Sequence record: NC_111505.1
Origin: a phage
Strand: one strand, 5' to 3'
Length of the DNA: 64,000 nt
This document shows positions 14,264-40,682 of the stretch, in pieces. Positions within the stretch are counted from its first letter, which is position 1. Every line of letters begins with the position of its first letter. The notes under the pieces are model-generated. The model ran no database searches and was not told the origin of the DNA. It worked only from the letters and a program-made list of their open reading frames with translations. Position numbers and translations under genes: made by a program.

Positions 14264-14980
14264 TTAGTTAACATCAATAGCACGACCAGACTGGTTGGCA
14301 ATAGCCTCATCATTGGAGGTAGCAATAACACCAGAGTATTCGCGCTCATCTGGAGCAAGCGTCCAGGTATTGCGGTTAATGGTTTGTTCTGCCTCAGTCA
14401 TCAGCAGATCTTTATCCTGAGTCAACAGAGAGCCTACAGGGATCGGGTTTTCCATCTCAGGACCAGCATACTGGTTCCACCATGTGGCATCTCCGGTTCT
14501 AGGCAATCTGAAGTTGATCAGATAGTACAGTTTATTAGCCCACTTAATCCAACCCTCATCATCACAAAGAGAGGTTGTCCCAGAATCAGGCTGTGGGTAG
14601 GTGAGCTGATCAAGACCTACGAAGGCCAGCCTTACAATCTCGTTCTCTTTGGTAACAACCTCAAAGAACGCTTGGTATGTTCTCGATCTTCGATCCATGG
14701 TAGACTGGAAGTTTATGATGTTTAGCACATCCGGCTCTTGTCTTGCCACTTCCATAATCTTGTTATCAAGAACAGTCTTCATGACCTTCTTACTGAGAAA
14801 GTCCATATAAGGGAAGCCAAACAGCTCGTCAAAGTACCAGCTCCCCTTCCACGTATTAAACCTCATCCACAAGCGCTGGCGCAGACTTACCTGGTTTGAA
14901 TCTATCAACTCAAGACCTTTGTCTATCGCCAAATCTCCTGTTTGTGGGTCCATCAATATATCACTATAAAGCGTAGCCAT
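14264..14980 (-). CDS. baseplate wedge protein (gp25/gpW-like N-terminal region)
   Basis: 238-aa ORF directly downstream of the spike gene; N-terminal segment (DLAIDKGLELIDSNQVSLRQRLWMRFNTWKGSWYFDELFG) resembles gp25/GPW-type baseplate proteins. Confidence 0.4.
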   Translation of the reverse strand: MATLYSDILMDPQTGDLAIDKGLELIDSNQVSLRQRLWMRFNTWKGSWYFDELFGFPYMDFLSKKVMKTVLDNKIMEVARQEPDVLNIINFQSTMDRRSRTYQAFFEVVTKENEIVRLAFVGLDQLTYPQPDSGTTSLCDDEGWIKWANKLYYLINFRLPRTGDATWWNQYAGPEMENPIPVGSLLTQDKDLLMTEAEQTINRNTWTLAPDEREYSGVIATSNDEAIANQSGRAIDVN

Positions 14981-14992
14981 GAAAGCCCTCTA

Positions 14993-15670
14993 TTAGTGCG
15001 GTCCACTTGTCTCGCCATCAGGGCAAGAGTGGGTATGACCTTTATATTCTGCATAGAATGAATCCAAATCCACACCAGCAGCAGTTATAATTCTACCAGA
15101 TGGGTCTATTGTGGCACCATTCATTCTGATATTTCCATCCACAGCAGCTCGCAAATTGGCAGCCCCGTTAGTGAAAGAAAACTCCCCACTGCTGTCGCAC
15201 CGTAATGTCCCACCCGGTGTTTGAAGCTCAAAATCGCCAGAAGGTGTCAGTTTAAAATAAACCCTATCATTCCATAACTCTACGTTATCAGGATCAATTT
15301 GTAAAGCGTTCGAGTCTGAATGAACAGAGGTGATTGCCCACCCTGGAAACAGGCCGTGAGTTTGTTGATCGTCGTTATTGTTTTCATTCCTCTCTGAAAA
15401 CTGCAATCCTACAACATCTCCGGCCTTAATAGGGAGTGTTAACCTTGCCTTTCCGCTGTTTGCAGACATCACCTGAATCGGAACGTCATAGATAAGAGGG
15501 TATCTCTCCACATCTCCGTCATCAAACGTGGTTTCAGCTATTGGCTGCACGGCTGCAGAAGGTATACTGTAGTCAACACTGACAACTCTGGCCCTGATAC
15601 TGGTGTGGTAGTCCCTCATTATTTTTTCTATAAAGGATCTTACAGCAGCATCTTTCCTATTTATTGCCAT
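14993..15670 (-). CDS. baseplate central spike protein (gpV/gp45-like)
   Basis: 225-aa ORF with C-terminal HTHSCPDGETSGP apex motif characteristic of P2 gpV / Mu gp45-type spikes; size and position fit. Confidence 0.5.
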   Translation of the reverse strand: MAINRKDAAVRSFIEKIMRDYHTSIRARVVSVDYSIPSAAVQPIAETTFDDGDVERYPLIYDVPIQVMSANSGKARLTLPIKAGDVVGLQFSERNENNNDDQQTHGLFPGWAITSVHSDSNALQIDPDNVELWNDRVYFKLTPSGDFELQTPGGTLRCDSSGEFSFTNGAANLRAAVDGNIRMNGATIDPSGRIITAAGVDLDSFYAEYKGHTHSCPDGETSGPH

Positions 15671-36182: not shown

Positions 36183-36228
36183 TTATCACGTGATAGGTGG
36201 ATTTTATCACGGCAAATACTGATTGTCA
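36183..36228 (-). promoter_or_regulatory. sigma70-type promoter with palindromic operator-like site
   Basis: Minus strand: -35 TTGACA (36228..36223), 17-bp spacer, -10 TAAAAT (36205..36200); perfect 12-bp palindrome TATCACGTGATA (36183..36194) lies between the -10 and the RBS of the 35834..36172 gene. Confidence 0.45.
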
Positions 36229-36517
36229 AGTTCGCCGCAGGGTGGTATTCCCTGCGACTTGCCCAGCGTCCTAGACCAGCAAGACCCAACAAGTGGGTTA
36301 CCAGAGACCCATTACCGCGCTTTGGCTCGACCTTATTACAGGTTGGCTGGGGTCACATCGTCATGTGCTGGCTGCCCCTACCATTTTAAGTGTGGTGCAC
36401 TATCAAGCCCTCTAAGGGGAACTCAGCCTTCTCCGAACCCTGTTTCAAAGCATCCGGAGATAAAGCCATCAAACTCATCTTTAAATTGGATATTCATCAT
36501 GATACACGAAAACAACC

Positions 36518-36760
36518 TCATTGTAAAGCACAAATAAATAAAACATACTTAATTTGTTTGTTATCGGGCTCAGGGTAGAAGTAGAAGATCTTGCTATCAC
36601 CAATCTGAACACCACCATCCCAACAACATAAACCATAACCCGTATTCATACAAGCTAAGTCGTTGGCAAAATCTATTGCATCATCTAGTGCACGAAATTC
36701 ACCTTCATCTTCTAAATAATCCTCATTCATGGAACGGAAAACGAGCTTAACCTTAAACAT
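36518..36760 (-). CDS. hypothetical protein
   Basis: 80-aa ORF, acidic. Confidence 0.4.
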   Translation of the reverse strand: MFKVKLVFRSMNEDYLEDEGEFRALDDAIDFANDLACMNTGYGLCCWDGGVQIGDSKIFYFYPEPDNKQIKYVLFICALQ

Positions 36761-36836
36761 AGCATTACCTGTAGACCTCGTAAGTTAAAATTGTATCACA
36801 TCATATTGCAGATCTTATCAGGTAACATTATTTTTG

Positions 36837-37025
36837 TCAACAGATTCCGGCCTTATCCCTCCTGTCTGCGTATTCTTTAATCGCAACCTCACCTGCATTG
36901 GTAACCAGATCTTCAAAGTAATTCTCAAGCTCCTCGTCAATGTCCGGTGACCAGCTCTTTTTCCTGTCAGTGTGAATTGCAGACCTGTTGAACTTATTAC
37001 AGTTCTTTGCTACCGGATTGTTCAT
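36837..37025 (-). CDS. hypothetical protein
   Basis: 62-aa ORF on the same strand as its neighbours. Confidence 0.35.
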   Translation of the reverse strand: MNNPVAKNCNKFNRSAIHTDRKKSWSPDIDEELENYFEDLVTNAGEVAIKEYADRRDKAGIC

Positions 37026-37035
37026 TAAGCTCTCC

Positions 37036-37614
37036 TCAACGTTCGTAGTAAATCTTATTCAACATTACCTCATCGTTTGCAGAAAGGATATCAAGATATG
37101 CATCACCAAATCTGCCTGCAACAACCTCTGCATGATACATCACTTCGTCAACATCGTCAAGAGTGATAACCGGATGACCATATCTTTCTGAATATTGCCT
37201 CAGGGTGCGATGTAACGAGTCGTCATCATATGCAGACTTTTTAATATCACAAACACGACGAATGGCCTTGATGTCGAAAAAACCTGTGCGATACCACCCA
37301 AGAAAAAAGTTCCGTGTGGTGTCAACATCTACATCAATACCATCAAGAACCTTATCTACAAGATAGCTGTCATCCTTTGGACCAGCGTCCTTAGTGCGAA
37401 TGTAGTTGCCATCTTTTCCAGGCGATAGCTCCTTCTCATCACCAACCTGCATGCCATCATTTGGCGGTGTTAGCCACTTATCCGGATGCTTACGATCACG
37501 AGCGTTAGAATGATTACGCTGGAAACCTGGCTTCCACTTGAAAGTTTTCTCCATCTGTTCTTCATTCTGATAACGTTTTGCAATCTTTTCGCGGTCATCT
37601 TTGCGTGAACTCAT
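37036..37614 (-). CDS. hypothetical protein
   Basis: 192-aa ORF; first gene downstream of the 660-bp non-coding region. Confidence 0.5.
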   Translation of the reverse strand: MSSRKDDREKIAKRYQNEEQMEKTFKWKPGFQRNHSNARDRKHPDKWLTPPNDGMQVGDEKELSPGKDGNYIRTKDAGPKDDSYLVDKVLDGIDVDVDTTRNFFLGWYRTGFFDIKAIRRVCDIKKSAYDDDSLHRTLRQYSERYGHPVITLDDVDEVMYHAEVVAGRFGDAYLDILSANDEVMLNKIYYER

Positions 37615-37689
37615 AACTGCCTCCTCTTCAAGTTATAGAAAAACTCACTGTATCGCTTTGTAACGAGCTTTTCTATCAAACTGGTGCGA

Positions 37690-37985
37690 TTGCCTTACTT
37701 GGTATAGTTTACGCAGCTGTGTGGCGATTTAGGGGCCTTCCTGTCCGTTTCCACACATAAACTTTAACCAAACTCGCGCGGGAGGCTCTCAACCGACTCC
37801 TTACGGCGCTGGCAAGCTTTCGTCGGTGGCCCACATTAGTGCTCGGCATTTGGCCTGCGCTATCGCTTCGCTCCCACACATGTTAACAGTCCTGCATGTA
37901 TGCACTCCTGTTATTGTGTGCACTATGGAGGCCCGGCATCTCGCCCCTCGTAGGCGAGTGCCAATGAGGGGCCGACACTACCAAT
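37690..37985. other. GC-rich ORF-free island with multiple stems (candidate structured RNA or regulatory leader)
   Basis: About 300 nt visibly more GC-rich than flanking DNA, with no ORF of 60 aa or more in any frame and several complementary segments (GCCCCTC/GAGGGGC, CCGAC/GTCGG, GGGAG/CTCCC). Confidence 0.2.
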
Positions 37986-38117
37986 AGTAAGTAATAAATT
38001 TAAAACATGGTACTTAGGATCTAGTATATTCTACATAAGTTAAGTATATGTACTTTAGTACCATAAGTACTAGATCTTTTATTTTTTATTATTTAGTTAT
38101 TTTAGTTATATTCTTTA

Positions 38118-38201
38118 TGTGTCCGTATCACGGACAGTTAGTGTCCGTATTACGGGCAGATGTGTCCGCGTGACGGACAGTAGTGTCCGTATCACGGACA
38201 G
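38118..38201. repeat. four tandem iterons, each an inverted repeat (TGTCCGT-nnn-ACGGACA)
   Basis: Units at 38118..38137, 38141..38159, 38161..38180 and 38183..38201 (period 20-22 bp), each a palindrome with 7-bp arms; preceded by an AT-rich tract (37985..38117) with AGTAC-type repeats. Confidence 0.7.
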
Positions 38202-38275
38202 TTACTACCCTCTGCTCTGGGATGGACATAAAACATACGAATCCTTATAGTACAGATATTTAAGTTTTTACTGGT

Positions 38276-38626
38276 CTAACCAGTTGTTGACATTCGAATA
38301 ACCTCTTCTGGTGGCAAAACTTTGGAAAATGTGCACCTTTTACCTCTCCCTTGTGTGGATATTTCAACCACTCCTGCACATTCTAAAGTTTTAACGCACG
38401 CTGCTGCTTTTGTTTTCTTTATCCCAACATCTGCTGCAATTTTCCTTGTGCTGGGTGTGAAGCGTGAACTTCCTCCAAGCTTATACCAGTTGTGCAGGTA
38501 GCAGTATACGATCTTGTCATACAAGTCAAGAATAACAACCTCCCCAGTTGTGTCATTCAAAACTTTTGACATAGACAGTATTTCAAGGGGGACTTTAAGA
38601 TATAGCAGCTTATCCCCATCTTTCAT
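38276..38626 (-). CDS. helix-turn-helix DNA-binding protein
   Basis: 116-aa ORF with HTH-like segment (RKIAADVGIKKTKAAACVKTLECAGVVEI), directly adjacent to the iteron array. Confidence 0.5.
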   Translation of the reverse strand: MKDGDKLLYLKVPLEILSMSKVLNDTTGEVVILDLYDKIVYCYLHNWYKLGGSSRFTPSTRKIAADVGIKKTKAAACVKTLECAGVVEISTQGRGKRCTFSKVLPPEEVIRMSTTG

Positions 38627-38673
38627 ATCTCCTGATTCTCCTTGTGTGGCAATTTTCTTTAAAATAGCAGGGA

Positions 38674-39228
38674 TTACTCACCGCTGTCAATAGCAAAACT
38701 CATTGCAATACGGTATGCCTCTTCTAATGGTAAGAGTCTCCCCCACACATCCCAACCGACATCAAACTGCCTGCCAAACAACTGCTGTGTGGTTCCGTGA
38801 GCATGACCGAACAGTTGGACTGATCCGTGAGGCTTTCTGTTCCACTTTGCAAACTGGTAATGGCTCATACAGATCAAATTCTTGTTGTGGCGAAGCTCGT
38901 AATAATCTACAACCTCATGACCGAACTCTTTCATAATTCTGACAGTCGTTCTTGTGTCATGGTTACCACGAACAAGAATAATATGTCCGTTCAACATATT
39001 TAGAACATCTGGAAGCAATTTGTTGATATTCTTATCATTAGTGCACGCAATATCCCCCAAGTGAAACACAGTGTCTGCAGGTGACACAACAGAGTTCCAC
39101 TTGGTGATGATTCCCGCATTCATACTGTCAAGATTGTGATCATACTGAGATCTGTGTTTTTGACATGAGTCGAACTCCATTACCCGCTGGTGGAGAAAGT
39201 GTGTGTCGCTTGTTACAAAGTATTTCAT
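38674..39228 (-). CDS. calcineurin-like metallophosphatase (Ser/Thr phosphatase family)
   Basis: Metallophosphoesterase motifs SDTHF, GDIACTN, VRGNHD, GHAHG. Start at ATG 39228..39226, 7 nt after the stop of the upstream kinase gene. Confidence 0.6.
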   Translation of the reverse strand: MKYFVTSDTHFLHQRVMEFDSCQKHRSQYDHNLDSMNAGIITKWNSVVSPADTVFHLGDIACTNDKNINKLLPDVLNMLNGHIILVRGNHDTRTTVRIMKEFGHEVVDYYELRHNKNLICMSHYQFAKWNRKPHGSVQLFGHAHGTTQQLFGRQFDVGWDVWGRLLPLEEAYRIAMSFAIDSGE

Positions 39229-39235
39229 ACATTCC

Positions 39236-39646
39236 TCATTTAAGTTTAATGCAGTTTTTAAGCTGGCGTTCCATACGATCCACAACCCTGTCTGGAACAT
39301 CATGAATGCTTTTATTACCATGGCGGTTTTCAACCACGATCACGGTATAACTATATCCATGACTGATCGCCATGTCAATATATTCTTGCACATATTTTTC
39401 TTTTGTAAACGTATTACTTACCACGATACGGTCGTAGCCCATACGCATCATATCTTCTACGTTATCTTTGCACCATTTTGCTGCAAGTGTTACTTTACTT
39501 GCATCCCAATTGTAATTGCCGTCATCGTCGTACCAGAACATATCGTTCTCAAAATGTGGATACAGACCTTCTAAAGATAGCGCATTTGCCAGTGTTGATT
39601 TGCCAGACCCTGGTAGACCACGCACGATATATAGCATTTTAGACAT
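39236..39646 (-). CDS. P-loop kinase (polynucleotide-kinase-like)
   Basis: Start at ATG 39646..39644 (MSKMLYIVRGLPGSGKST, Walker A) with RBS GGAGAG; N-terminus resembles the T4 Pnk kinase domain as recalled. Confidence 0.55.
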   Translation of the reverse strand: MSKMLYIVRGLPGSGKSTLANALSLEGLYPHFENDMFWYDDDGNYNWDASKVTLAAKWCKDNVEDMMRMGYDRIVVSNTFTKEKYVQEYIDMAISHGYSYTVIVVENRHGNKSIHDVPDRVVDRMERQLKNCIKLK

Positions 39647-39674
39647 AGTAACTCTCCGTTTTAATTTTAATGAT

Positions 39675-39703
39675 AGTATACCTAACTGTTTTGTTAATTT
39701 CAA
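39675..39703 (-). promoter_or_regulatory. sigma70-type promoter for the kinase/phosphatase operon
   Basis: Minus strand: -35 TTGAAA (39703..39698), 17-bp spacer, -10 TATACT (39680..39675), about 30 nt upstream of the kinase start. Confidence 0.4.
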
Positions 39704-39706
39704 GTG

Positions 39707-39736
39707 TTGACACCAGGTTATTTGTGTGGCAGAATA
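39707..39736 (+). promoter_or_regulatory. candidate divergent plus-strand promoter
   Basis: -35 TTGACA (39707..39712) lies 4 bp from the minus-strand -35; the -10 is weak (CAGAAT/AGAATA around 39730..39736). Confidence 0.3.
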
Positions 39737-39746
39737 AAGGGACAAA

Positions 39747-40682
39747 ATGACAAATGAGGAATGTATGATGAAGTATTTTAATGCAGACGACCTGGTTGAC
39801 AAAGGTCTTGTAACCAGCAGATATTACCCAGATCTTGGATTAAAGATCTACAAATATGCCAGAAAAGTATTCTACAACAATTTATGGCATTTGTCTCCGC
39901 GTTTACTAGAGTGCCGAGGCATTGTTGTCGGTAATGAAGGAAATGTTGTGGCATGGCCCTTCACAAAAGTGTTTAATTTGGGAGAAAACTCCACCAACCT
40001 GCCTGACAATAAACTTGTGACGGCGGTAGAGAAAAAGAACGGATTCCTTGGTGTGGTATCATCTCATAAAGGTGAACTATTGTTTTCAACAACCGGGTCT
40101 CTTGATTCTCCATATTGTAACCTTGCAAAGGAAACCATCCAGGAGCAATGTGGTAATTTAGATCTCATCAAAAAGGTTATGGGCCATGAAAACATGACAT
40201 TCATGTTTGAAATTTGTCACCCTTCAGATCCGCATATTGTTCAGGAAGACCATGGCGCATATTTGATAGGTTGCAGATATAACGATTCTGGAATAATGCT
40301 ACCAGAAGCAGCTTTAGATGGGATTGCCAAATACCTTGGTGCAAAACGTCCTCACACTGTGCGTGAAATTCCGTTCAGCTATGCAAAAGAATTAGCTGCA
40401 GAAACAAGAGGTGAAGGGTATATGATTCGTAAGCCTTACTACCCTTATGATCTGCAGCTGAAGATCAAGTCTCCATACTATTTGGCACGGAAGGCCGTAA
40501 TGAGGGGTAAAGCTTGGAAGATTTGGGATGATGATATCTTTAAACGTATTGACGAAGAGTTTTACGGCATGGTAAACTTCATTCGTAACAATTACACAGA
40601 AGATGTGTGGAACTGCCTCCTAGAGCAGGAACGCCGTGAGATACTTGACTGCTATTTCCACAACGAGGACTATATGCAATGA
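39747..40682 (+). CDS. putative nucleotidyltransferase / RNA-ligase-like protein
   Basis: Lys-containing KKNGF segment (AVEKKNGFLGVVS) resembles ligase motif I (KxDG/KxHG). In-frame ATGs at 39747, 39765 and 39768; RBS GAGGAA (39756..39761) favours 39765/39768. Confidence 0.35.
   Translation: MTNEECMMKYFNADDLVDKGLVTSRYYPDLGLKIYKYARKVFYNNLWHLSPRLLECRGIVVGNEGNVVAWPFTKVFNLGENSTNLPDNKLVTAVEKKNGFLGVVSSHKGELLFSTTGSLDSPYCNLAKETIQEQCGNLDLIKKVMGHENMTFMFEICHPSDPHIVQEDHGAYLIGCRYNDSGIMLPEAALDGIAKYLGAKRPHTVREIPFSYAKELAAETRGEGYMIRKPYYPYDLQLKIKSPYYLARKAVMRGKAWKIWDDDIFKRIDEEFYGMVNFIRNNYTEDVWNCLLEQERREILDCYFHNEDYMQ

Follow-up and report, generated by a model that had tools for sequence, protein, structure and literature searches.

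Single-strand initiation (ssi) signals stand beside iteron origins, as with ssiA and ssiB at RSF1010 oriV, the G-site of plasmid R1 and oric of phage G4. Here we describe an element with a comparable setting in a 64,000-nucleotide (nt) stretch of phage DNA (NC_111505.1; the window), which belongs to Vequintavirus (FV3/rV5-like phages) and is, around the element, 98% identical to Escherichia phage FV3. The minus strand is the coding strand for the genes of this region, and the element occupies the gap between the gene for a 116-amino-acid (aa) helix-turn-helix (HTH) protein (38276-38626) and the gene for a 192-aa protein (37036-37614); it is a conserved non-coding element that folds on the minus, gene-sense strand into three domains (D1 to D3) and a looser fourth (D4). 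Its likeness to the ssi signals lies in non-coding hairpins that stand beside iterons and an AT-rich region and appear to be strand-specific, although the preference for the sense strand would suit an RNA as well, in conserved loops on stems that change by compensation, and in that the primase or replisome using such a signal is not necessarily self-encoded. Unlike them, it measures ~200-300 nt and has several domains, and its G.U-rich helices and UUCG and GAUA loops are more RNA-like; a search of the plasmid database PLSDB with the element gave no similarity to known plasmid ssi or origin sequences, the only matches being the satellite plasmids described below and one phage-like record.

We propose, with a confidence that stops a little short of even, that the element is the part of an iteron-type origin cassette that stays constant, folds as a single strand and acts either as RNA or as a displaced DNA strand; its function is probably linked to replication. 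The proposal is made because a winged-helix gene, iterons spaced at two helical turns, an AT-rich stretch and a GC-rich folded segment together match the logic of iteron origins. By this analogy, the initiator would bind its own iterons and open the AT-rich stretch, and the adjacent module, once in single-stranded form, would offer a replication entry or priming site. It would do so either as an RNA transcribed through the origin from the promoter of the initiator gene, which is the form slightly favored, or as the displaced minus DNA strand, in the manner of an ssi signal. Initiator and iterons could be exchanged for another specificity with the folded module retained, and plasmid-like putative satellites of ~13.5 kb would set the same module beside iterons of their own, presumably for service by the same replication machinery. 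In its action the element would come nearest to an origin-flanking ssi or primer element, and as a site shared by helper and satellite it would resemble the cos of P4 and P2; its size, its fold of several domains and its strand-specific wobble pairs set it apart from both.

Other described systems share some of these properties. The lambda origin likewise has four dyad-symmetric iterons of ~20 base pairs (bp), an AT-rich stretch and a GC-richer self-complementary segment, and initiator and iteron specificity vary jointly among relatives, there among lambdoid phages; here, however, the iterons lie downstream of the initiator-like gene and not within it, the folded segment beside them is longer by a factor of ten and pairs in a strand-specific way, and a homologue of the P/DnaB loader was not identified. 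Transcripts that run into or through an origin are known from ColE1 RNA II, whose folding sets primer formation, from the T4 oriF and oriG R-loops and from the primary origin of T7; those origins have no iterons or Rep protein, whereas the element has no similarity to RNA II and no promoter at a defined distance, so that an R-loop or primer role for it is hypothetical. Parasites that keep a non-coding site of their helper while their proteins are far more diverged include P4, whose cos is that of P2, the phage-inducible chromosomal islands (PICIs), with their cos or pac sites, and the PICI-like element PLE, whose iteron origin recruits the ICP1 replisome. In the present case the shared site is no terminase cut site but an element that folds, with a strand bias, beside iterons, and the helper relationship is drawn from protein homology alone. 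HK022 put and lambda nut are also cis-acting hairpin RNAs near the starts of phage operons, and a boxA-like CGCUCUUU is present in some satellites, but the element is much larger and lies upstream of the satellite promoters, and terminators to be overcome were not found.

Conservation and folding of the element

The element was noticed in a reading of the window's sequence alone, which had described a GC-rich, ORF-free island with extensive self-complementarity, a candidate structured RNA (ORF, open reading frame). The island is real: GC content is 0.553 at 37686-37985 against 0.434 for the whole window, a value that stands at the 99.98th percentile among windows of 300 nt; the highest value of the 64 kb, 0.56, belongs to the 300-nt window starting at 37683. 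The interval 37615-38275 (661 bp), which that reading had described as free of ORFs of at least 60 aa in any frame, is the longest such interval in the window; within it, the longest ORF of the minus strand has 56 aa and that of the plus strand 53 aa. On the minus strand, taken as the RNA sense, the fold has the following parts.

37930-37973, minus strand: domain D1, outer helix GGCCC/GGGCC around inner GGCA-CUCGCC / GGCGAG-A-UGCC, with a 7-8-nt loop (UACGAGG)
37886-37911, minus strand: domain D2, variable hairpin, ACAG..UGCAU-ACAUGCA..CUGU
37776-37879, minus strand: domain D3, closing helix GUGUGG(GAG)/(CUC)CCGCGC around small hairpins and P3
37792-37827, minus strand: hairpin P3 (in D3), stem ACCGAC/GUCGGU, 24-nt loop GAAAGCUUGCCAGCGCCGKAAGGA
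37683-37737, minus strand: domain D4, loosely conserved tail, GCCCCUAAAU..GCUGC.UAAAC..GCAAUYGCA, without a supported helix

The three helices drawn in the sequence-only reading all have a place here. GCCCCTC/GAGGGGC corresponds to an inverted repeat in D1 (I10, 37943-37955 with 37960-37972) and CCGAC/GTCGG to the P3 stem (37792-37827), both supported by compensatory changes, and GGGAG/CTCCC is contained in the closing helix of D3 (37776-37879). Covariation speaks in favor of the fold, on comparisons that span four to five lineages. The P3 stem reads CCGAC/GUCGG in the phages, CUGCC/GGCAG in one class of satellites (type A) and GUCCGGAU/AUCCGGAC in another (type B); 95.6% of its cells are paired, four of its six pairs have changed on both sides, and its covariation score was reached by none of 500 shuffles. 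In D1, every cell is paired (100%), and three pairs, distributed over both helices, have changed on both sides across the phages and two satellites (L035 and L058), again a result found in 0/500 shuffles. The closing helix of D3 recurs in each of the 19 distinct versions that phages and satellites provide, measures 96-107 nt end to end, and contains 75 Watson-Crick and 39 G.U cells and no A.C cell. Within D3, the small hairpins are GCGAAGC/GCGAUAGC, GGCC-AAA-GGCC and CAC-UAAU-GUG, and the 24-nt loop of P3 has the same sequence in phages and type-A satellites. Within the phages, variable columns make up 22% of paired and 36% of unpaired positions (Fisher p=0.04).

The remaining parts are looser. 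One pair of D2 is A-U in nine sequences, C-G in one (the divergent lineage L003) and non-standard in four, including the G.A of the window; in Murica and typing phage 5, the hairpin is still formed after an 18-nt deletion between direct repeats, and in pangalan its apical stem is broken. D4 varies most within the phages (48 of 91 columns). A pseudoknot in D1, CYUC/GAGG, is possible, and CUCCC has two possible partners, either GGGAG or the Shine-Dalgarno-like AAGGAG in the P3 loop. RNAalifold adds a long-range helix that joins the 5' edge of D1 with the interior of D3 and takes the states U-A, U.G and C-G; as satellites that have no D1 are unable to form it, the overall fold is provisional.

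The wobble pattern, the stability and the types of loop all favor the gene-sense strand, as judged from the sequences. Single-sided changes preserve pairing through G.U on the minus strand only (A-U to G.U in P3, C-G to U.G in D1, and C to U in satellite L056); in each of 15 versions, D3 is more stable on the sense than on the antisense strand, with a mean difference of 4.6 kcal/mol; and it is on the minus strand that UUCG and GAUA loops closed by C-G pairs occur. The same observations slightly favor an RNA over a DNA form. The motif GCGAAGC, present in D3, is a classic stable DNA mini-hairpin.

Folding energies add less. With RNA parameters the z-score is -2.3 over 376 nt and -1.7 over the 214-nt core, and with DNA parameters it is -1.3, values so modest that thermodynamics alone would not establish a structure, and the support for the fold is comparative. 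The claim of extensive self-complementarity stands for the helices it named; the excess over chance is modest. Similarly, the candidate structured RNA is borne out as a conserved non-coding fold on the gene-sense strand, and it has no counterpart in Rfam or among described large phage RNAs. With the 4227 covariance models of Rfam 15, applied in gathering and permissive scans, only tRNAs exceeded the gathering threshold in the window; the sole permissive hit in 35700-38400 was rli43, with 25.8 bits against a gathering score of 100 and mostly over the AT-rich stretch, and scans of the satellites and L003 gave zero hits on the element. Likenesses seen by eye to the type I-E CRISPR repeat of E. 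coli, the RfaH ops site, an arm of XerCD cer, ssoA CS-6, T7 primase pentamers and lambda boxA were all partial, and none was confirmed. The sequence UGUGUGGR is weakly enriched genome-wide (11 sites against 5.3 expected; 4/100 shuffles reach 11).

At the DNA level, the element is present in 118 of 118 Vequintavirus records with 90-99% identity, and in a divergent lineage (IMG/VR contig 3300010279_000001, loci L003 and L009) with 84% identity, always as one copy per genome. At megablast sensitivity, its surroundings match 119 phage records, all of them rV5-like Vequintavirus, some being mislabelled Campylobacter phages. Blastn and tblastn searches with the element and with the 192-aa and 116-aa proteins returned only Vequintavirus among phage genera. 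Exact-pattern scans for the P3 loop across viral, genome and metagenome collections gave true matches solely in Vequintavirus and in satellite contigs; the other matches (L004-L008, L012-L020, L022, L024, L025, L027-L030) were discarded as mostly chance occurrences inside GC-rich coding DNA. An origin as a host-derived relic was also rejected, since complete E. coli genomes contain no chromosomal match and the hits there are to plasmids only. Our literature search found no description of the element, of the satellites or of a Vequintavirus origin, and as far as searched the element is apparently undescribed.

Iterons, AT-rich stretch and initiator-like gene

The features that suggest an origin lie just outside the interval outlined in the sequence-only reading, where four iterons and an AT-rich stretch (together 37981-38204) stand beside an initiator-like gene.

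37981-38118, no strand assigned: AT-rich stretch, candidate DNA-unwinding region, GC ~0.35, with interleaved inverted repeats
38119-38204, no strand assigned: four iterons of 21-22 bp, GTGTCCGTATCACGGACAG, each an inverted repeat, spacing 22, 21 and 21 bp
38276-38626, minus strand: gene for a 116-aa winged-helix, initiator-like protein, with Pfam HTH_36 and DUF6945 matches both under the curated cut-off
38661-38690, minus strand: predicted sigma-70-like promoter, TTGACA-18-TATTTT with TG, 10/12 consensus matches, upstream of the initiator-like gene

In the phages the cassette runs from the winged-helix gene through four iterons and the AT-rich stretch to D1-D3 and the tail D4. The order of iterons, spacer and element is constant across four unrelated iteron families: the window has 4 x 22 bp, L003 has 5 x 20 bp, the satellites have 6 x 19 bp, and satellite L035 has an extra array of 3 x 36 bp. 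Copy numbers in L003 and the satellites are five to six, with a spacing of 21-34 bp. Three hallmarks of iteron origins are found here, namely tandem direct repeats at about two helical turns in the window's array, an AT-rich region that adjoins them (in L003, a purine-rich AT tract is the counterpart), and an adjacent winged-helix gene that co-varies with the iterons in sequence comparison. The protein itself matches PHROG 12838, "replication initiation protein" (E 2e-79), and is variously annotated as a transcriptional regulator or a replication initiation protein. The iterons (38119-38204) carry a repeat_region annotation in two GenBank records, and the record MG065672.1 is linearized exactly at the array's edge. 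The inverted repeats of the AT-rich stretch are AGATCTAGTA/TACTAGATCC and TATGGTAC/GTACCATG; the stretch (37981-38118) is near-invariant in 15 Vequintavirus sequences and unrelated in L003, and no sigma-70 promoter was found on its minus strand.

The L003 lineage is informative about the parts of the cassette. There the adjacent winged-helix protein shares only 27% identity with its counterpart and the iterons bear no relation to those of the window, against 82-90% identity for the element and the genes that flank it; the protein-plus-iteron cassette has thus been swapped and the element kept. In the same locus (2380-2620), the spacer between iterons and element is ~270 nt long, and extra hairpins and a long purine-rich AT tract replace the palindromic AT-rich stretch of the window.

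On the phage minus strand, the element is flanked by neither a sigma-70-like promoter nor an intrinsic terminator of its own. With no promoter or terminator between it and its neighbors, it is likely to be transcribed with them in the phage: the predicted promoter at 38661-38690 would read through iterons and element, and terminator-like sites are absent up to the 192-aa gene, an arrangement that fits the RNA form of the proposed origin module.

Plasmid-like putative satellites that share the element

Beyond Vequintavirus, the only carriers of the element are circular E. coli plasmids of ~13.5 kb (loci L034-L039, L021, L026 and L053-L058; NZ_CP020521, NZ_CP043822, CP148565, NZ_CP035869, CP134895, NZ_CP178698 and others). 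Their genes encode a major capsid protein, a Dit-like baseplate protein, a Neck1-like protein, a tape-measure protein, a Rep protein of the HTH_36 type and further HTH proteins; terminase, portal, sheath and tube are absent from their annotated genes. Identities to the window and FV3 are 50% for the Dit-like, 44-45% (tblastn) for the Neck1-like, 25-26% for the tape-measure and 23% for the major capsid protein. Because these plasmids bring their own homologues of the Vequintavirus capsid, Dit, neck and tape-measure proteins, they are, judging by sequence, putative satellites of Vequintavirus; like satellites, they have some genes that match the helper and are missing essential virion and packaging genes. 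They are common, one cluster of capsid proteins having 441 member sequences, nearly all on contigs of 13-14 kb. One plasmid was assembled as a trimer, and L058 is fused to a region with aminoglycoside resistance and insertion sequences.

The element is the sole non-coding DNA common to the satellites and FV3, with blocks 82-88% identical against 23-50% for the proteins. An nhmmer profile of the phage element aligns to the satellites across D3 and D4 (E 1e-19 to 1e-21), and to D1 in two satellites only. Satellites also carry variable strings of small stable hairpins, with UUCG, GAUA, GAA and UAC loops and UGUGU linkers between them. Two architectures of D3 occur; in type B both the stem and the loop of P3 differ, and the type-B element, in which most of the shared sequence is missing, matches no phage.

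In the satellites, too, the element follows an iteron array (two arrays in L035). As satellites and phages share only iterons beside the element, in the same order and orientation, the iteron array is its one constant partner. Upstream of the satellite element, a strong terminator is followed by 1.4 kb of conserved non-coding DNA, and such DNA exceeds 2 kb overall; downstream, between element and next ORF, are the sigma-70 promoters of the Rep operon. The Rep proteins have weak matches to HTH_36 and to O-like PHROGs. Terminator-like hairpins antisense to the element occur in satellites just 5' of D3 and within D4 (for example, in L034 at 14933-14961 and 15164-15181, minus strand), as does a weak divergent promoter, and an antisense transcript may cross the element there.

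A further step of the proposal, which we consider possible but doubtful, is that the module is a replication key needed by the replisome, which common, undescribed satellites have copied in order to replicate upon helper infection; on this analogy, initiator and iteron cassettes would diversify in an arms race with the key held fixed. If the shared module is indeed what the satellite needs from its helper, it would represent a new type of hijacking signal and a means of recognizing helper-satellite pairs by sequence alone, and if it acts as RNA, it would stand for a new family of structured RNAs, of defined multi-domain architecture. In any event, rV5-like phages see wide use in therapy and biocontrol collections, and for them the element provides a concrete, testable origin-region candidate; it has also brought to light a family, apparently undescribed, of what seem to be plasmid-like satellites of coliphages that are strictly virulent.

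Other possible functions and neighboring features

Several findings weigh against the origin proposal. The covariation comes from only four to five independent lineages; within the phage genus, a single one of 50 pairs covaries and 38 are invariant, and the shuffle control is not exceeded. The folding-energy z-scores are weak, and the sequence does not separate an RNA from a single-stranded DNA form, as UUCG and GAUA loops point to RNA and GCGAAGC also to DNA. Since type-B satellites differ in P3 and few satellites have D1, no single sequence feature is universally required, and in the satellites neither an upstream sigma-70 promoter nor an intrinsic terminator was found to flank the element in sense orientation. 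The iterons could be operators for a transcription regulator instead of initiator sites. No DnaA box (TTWTNCACA) occurs in 37000-39000, although phage origins can do without them. No Vequintavirus has a mapped replication origin, and the paper on the rV5 genome reports none, mentioning only a "non-coding" box (PMC3606486); the label "origin" is thus used here by analogy, and it is by inference from the cassette that we assign the element an origin function, a form as RNA or DNA and a link to the replisome.

A cis-acting structured RNA in a polycistronic early or middle mRNA, serving as an intercistronic leader for the processing, stability or translation of the downstream operon from the 192-aa gene to the tRNAs, would account for an element that lies on the sense strand between co-oriented genes without its own promoter or terminator, for its G.U-rich helices and RNA-type loops, and for the alternative partners of CUCCC (GGGAG or AAGGAG), which resemble a switch. 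We nevertheless regard it as unlikely, for the element is uncoupled from the downstream gene: in another phage, the homologue of the 192-aa gene (50% identity) is preceded by a gap of just 60 nt and by no element, and in the satellites the non-coding region follows a terminator, with strong promoters intervening between element and next ORF. An attenuator or riboswitch would be expected to show a terminator-antiterminator pair, which was not found, and the constant linkage to iterons would be unexplained. The structured 5' leader that the sequence-only reading had offered as an equal option has accordingly lost ground, and so has its argument from the tRNA cluster, said to be two genes away; the cluster (35014-35737) is separated from the element by four ORFs or ~1.9 kb, and closeness to tRNAs plays no part. 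A gene for a trans-acting non-coding RNA useful to phage and satellite alike, such as an anti-defense decoy or a regulator cut from a long transcript, appears to us rather improbable. A conserved fold with invariant loops, exemplified by the 24-nt P3 loop in phages and type-A satellites, and the satellites' variable strings of small hairpins with UGUGU linkers would suit such an RNA, and the related phage phiTE uses an RNA mimic (pseudo-ToxI); yet no promoter or terminator that would define a gene and no Rfam relatives were found, tandem identical repeats as in type III antitoxins are absent, and a copy made by the helper would spare the satellite a copy of its own and a fixed place beside iterons.

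That the satellites, without terminase or portal, share the element as sole non-coding DNA could also point to a DNA packaging (pac) site of headful-packaging phages that terminase-less satellites have copied, and rV5 genomes are circularly permuted (rV5 genome paper, PMC3606486). This possibility is slim, because compensatory stem changes and strand-specific G.U pairs are unexpected in a duplex bound by protein, the large-terminase gene lies 3.5 kb away and the sole small-terminase-like candidate (35834-36175) ~1.5 kb away from the element, and type-B satellites do not have most of the shared sequence; moreover, the 86-aa HTH protein that satellites encode could redirect packaging. Least credible of all, to the point where we have rejected it, is a protein-coding reading, that is, one or more small genes such as the 56-aa ORF at 37709-37879 (minus strand). 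Among 16 phage sequences, 14 keep this ORF open, and some GenBank records (BASEL, ECML-10) annotate it as a "hypothetical protein", but it is broken in L003 and L043 and absent from the element-bearing satellites, its GTG start has no ribosome-binding site, and its variable sites, 14, 21 and 16 at codon positions 1, 2 and 3, show no third-position excess. Its lack of stops is explained by GC content, since GC-rich DNA is expected to be without stops by chance.

The origin proposal does not involve the features on the downstream side of the element, where a gene and a hairpin follow.

37036-37614, minus strand: gene for the 192-aa protein, directly downstream of the element
37635-37676, minus strand: 12-bp hairpin (inverted repeat I9), directly 5' of the ribosome-binding site (37620-37626) of the 192-aa gene

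The hairpin is near-invariant across all phages and L003 and missing in the satellites and is therefore probably a separate, gene-specific feature. Searches of Pfam and PDB with the 192-aa protein gave no match, its PHROG is of unknown function, and its AlphaFold model is poor (pLDDT 58), with no Foldseek hit below E=1.

Some observations were made farther from the element. FV3 (NC_019517.1) has a 2.2-kb gene-free region at 104329-106593, outside the window (L051 4329-6593), where two gene blocks converge; the region probably corresponds to the "non-coding" box of the rV5 paper and has no similarity to the non-coding DNA of the satellites. A second GC-rich (51-53%), ORF-poor patch at 36176-36517, just upstream of rV5 promoter P074 and a 113-aa gene, has a fold z-score of only -1.05 and no similarity to the element. 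The 113-aa protein (35834-36175, minus strand) has a very basic N terminus (KKRRRRGRP) and an acidic C terminus; its faint resemblance to a small terminase subunit of solved structure (7joq_I, E 0.06) makes it a possible candidate for the small terminase, a gene without annotation in these phages. In the tRNA cluster, an odd tRNA-like gene of 97-99 nt (35170-35268, minus strand) is assigned a four-base anticodon, "atcc", by ARAGORN, is tRNA-Lys or tRNA-OTHER in other annotations, and scores only 37.5 bits with Rfam. Near the tRNA genes, an RNA ligase 1 homologue, a metallophosphoesterase and a polynucleotide-kinase-like ATPase (39236-40682 and 38674-39333) flank a divergent promoter region, a combination that resembles a T4-like RNA-repair set.

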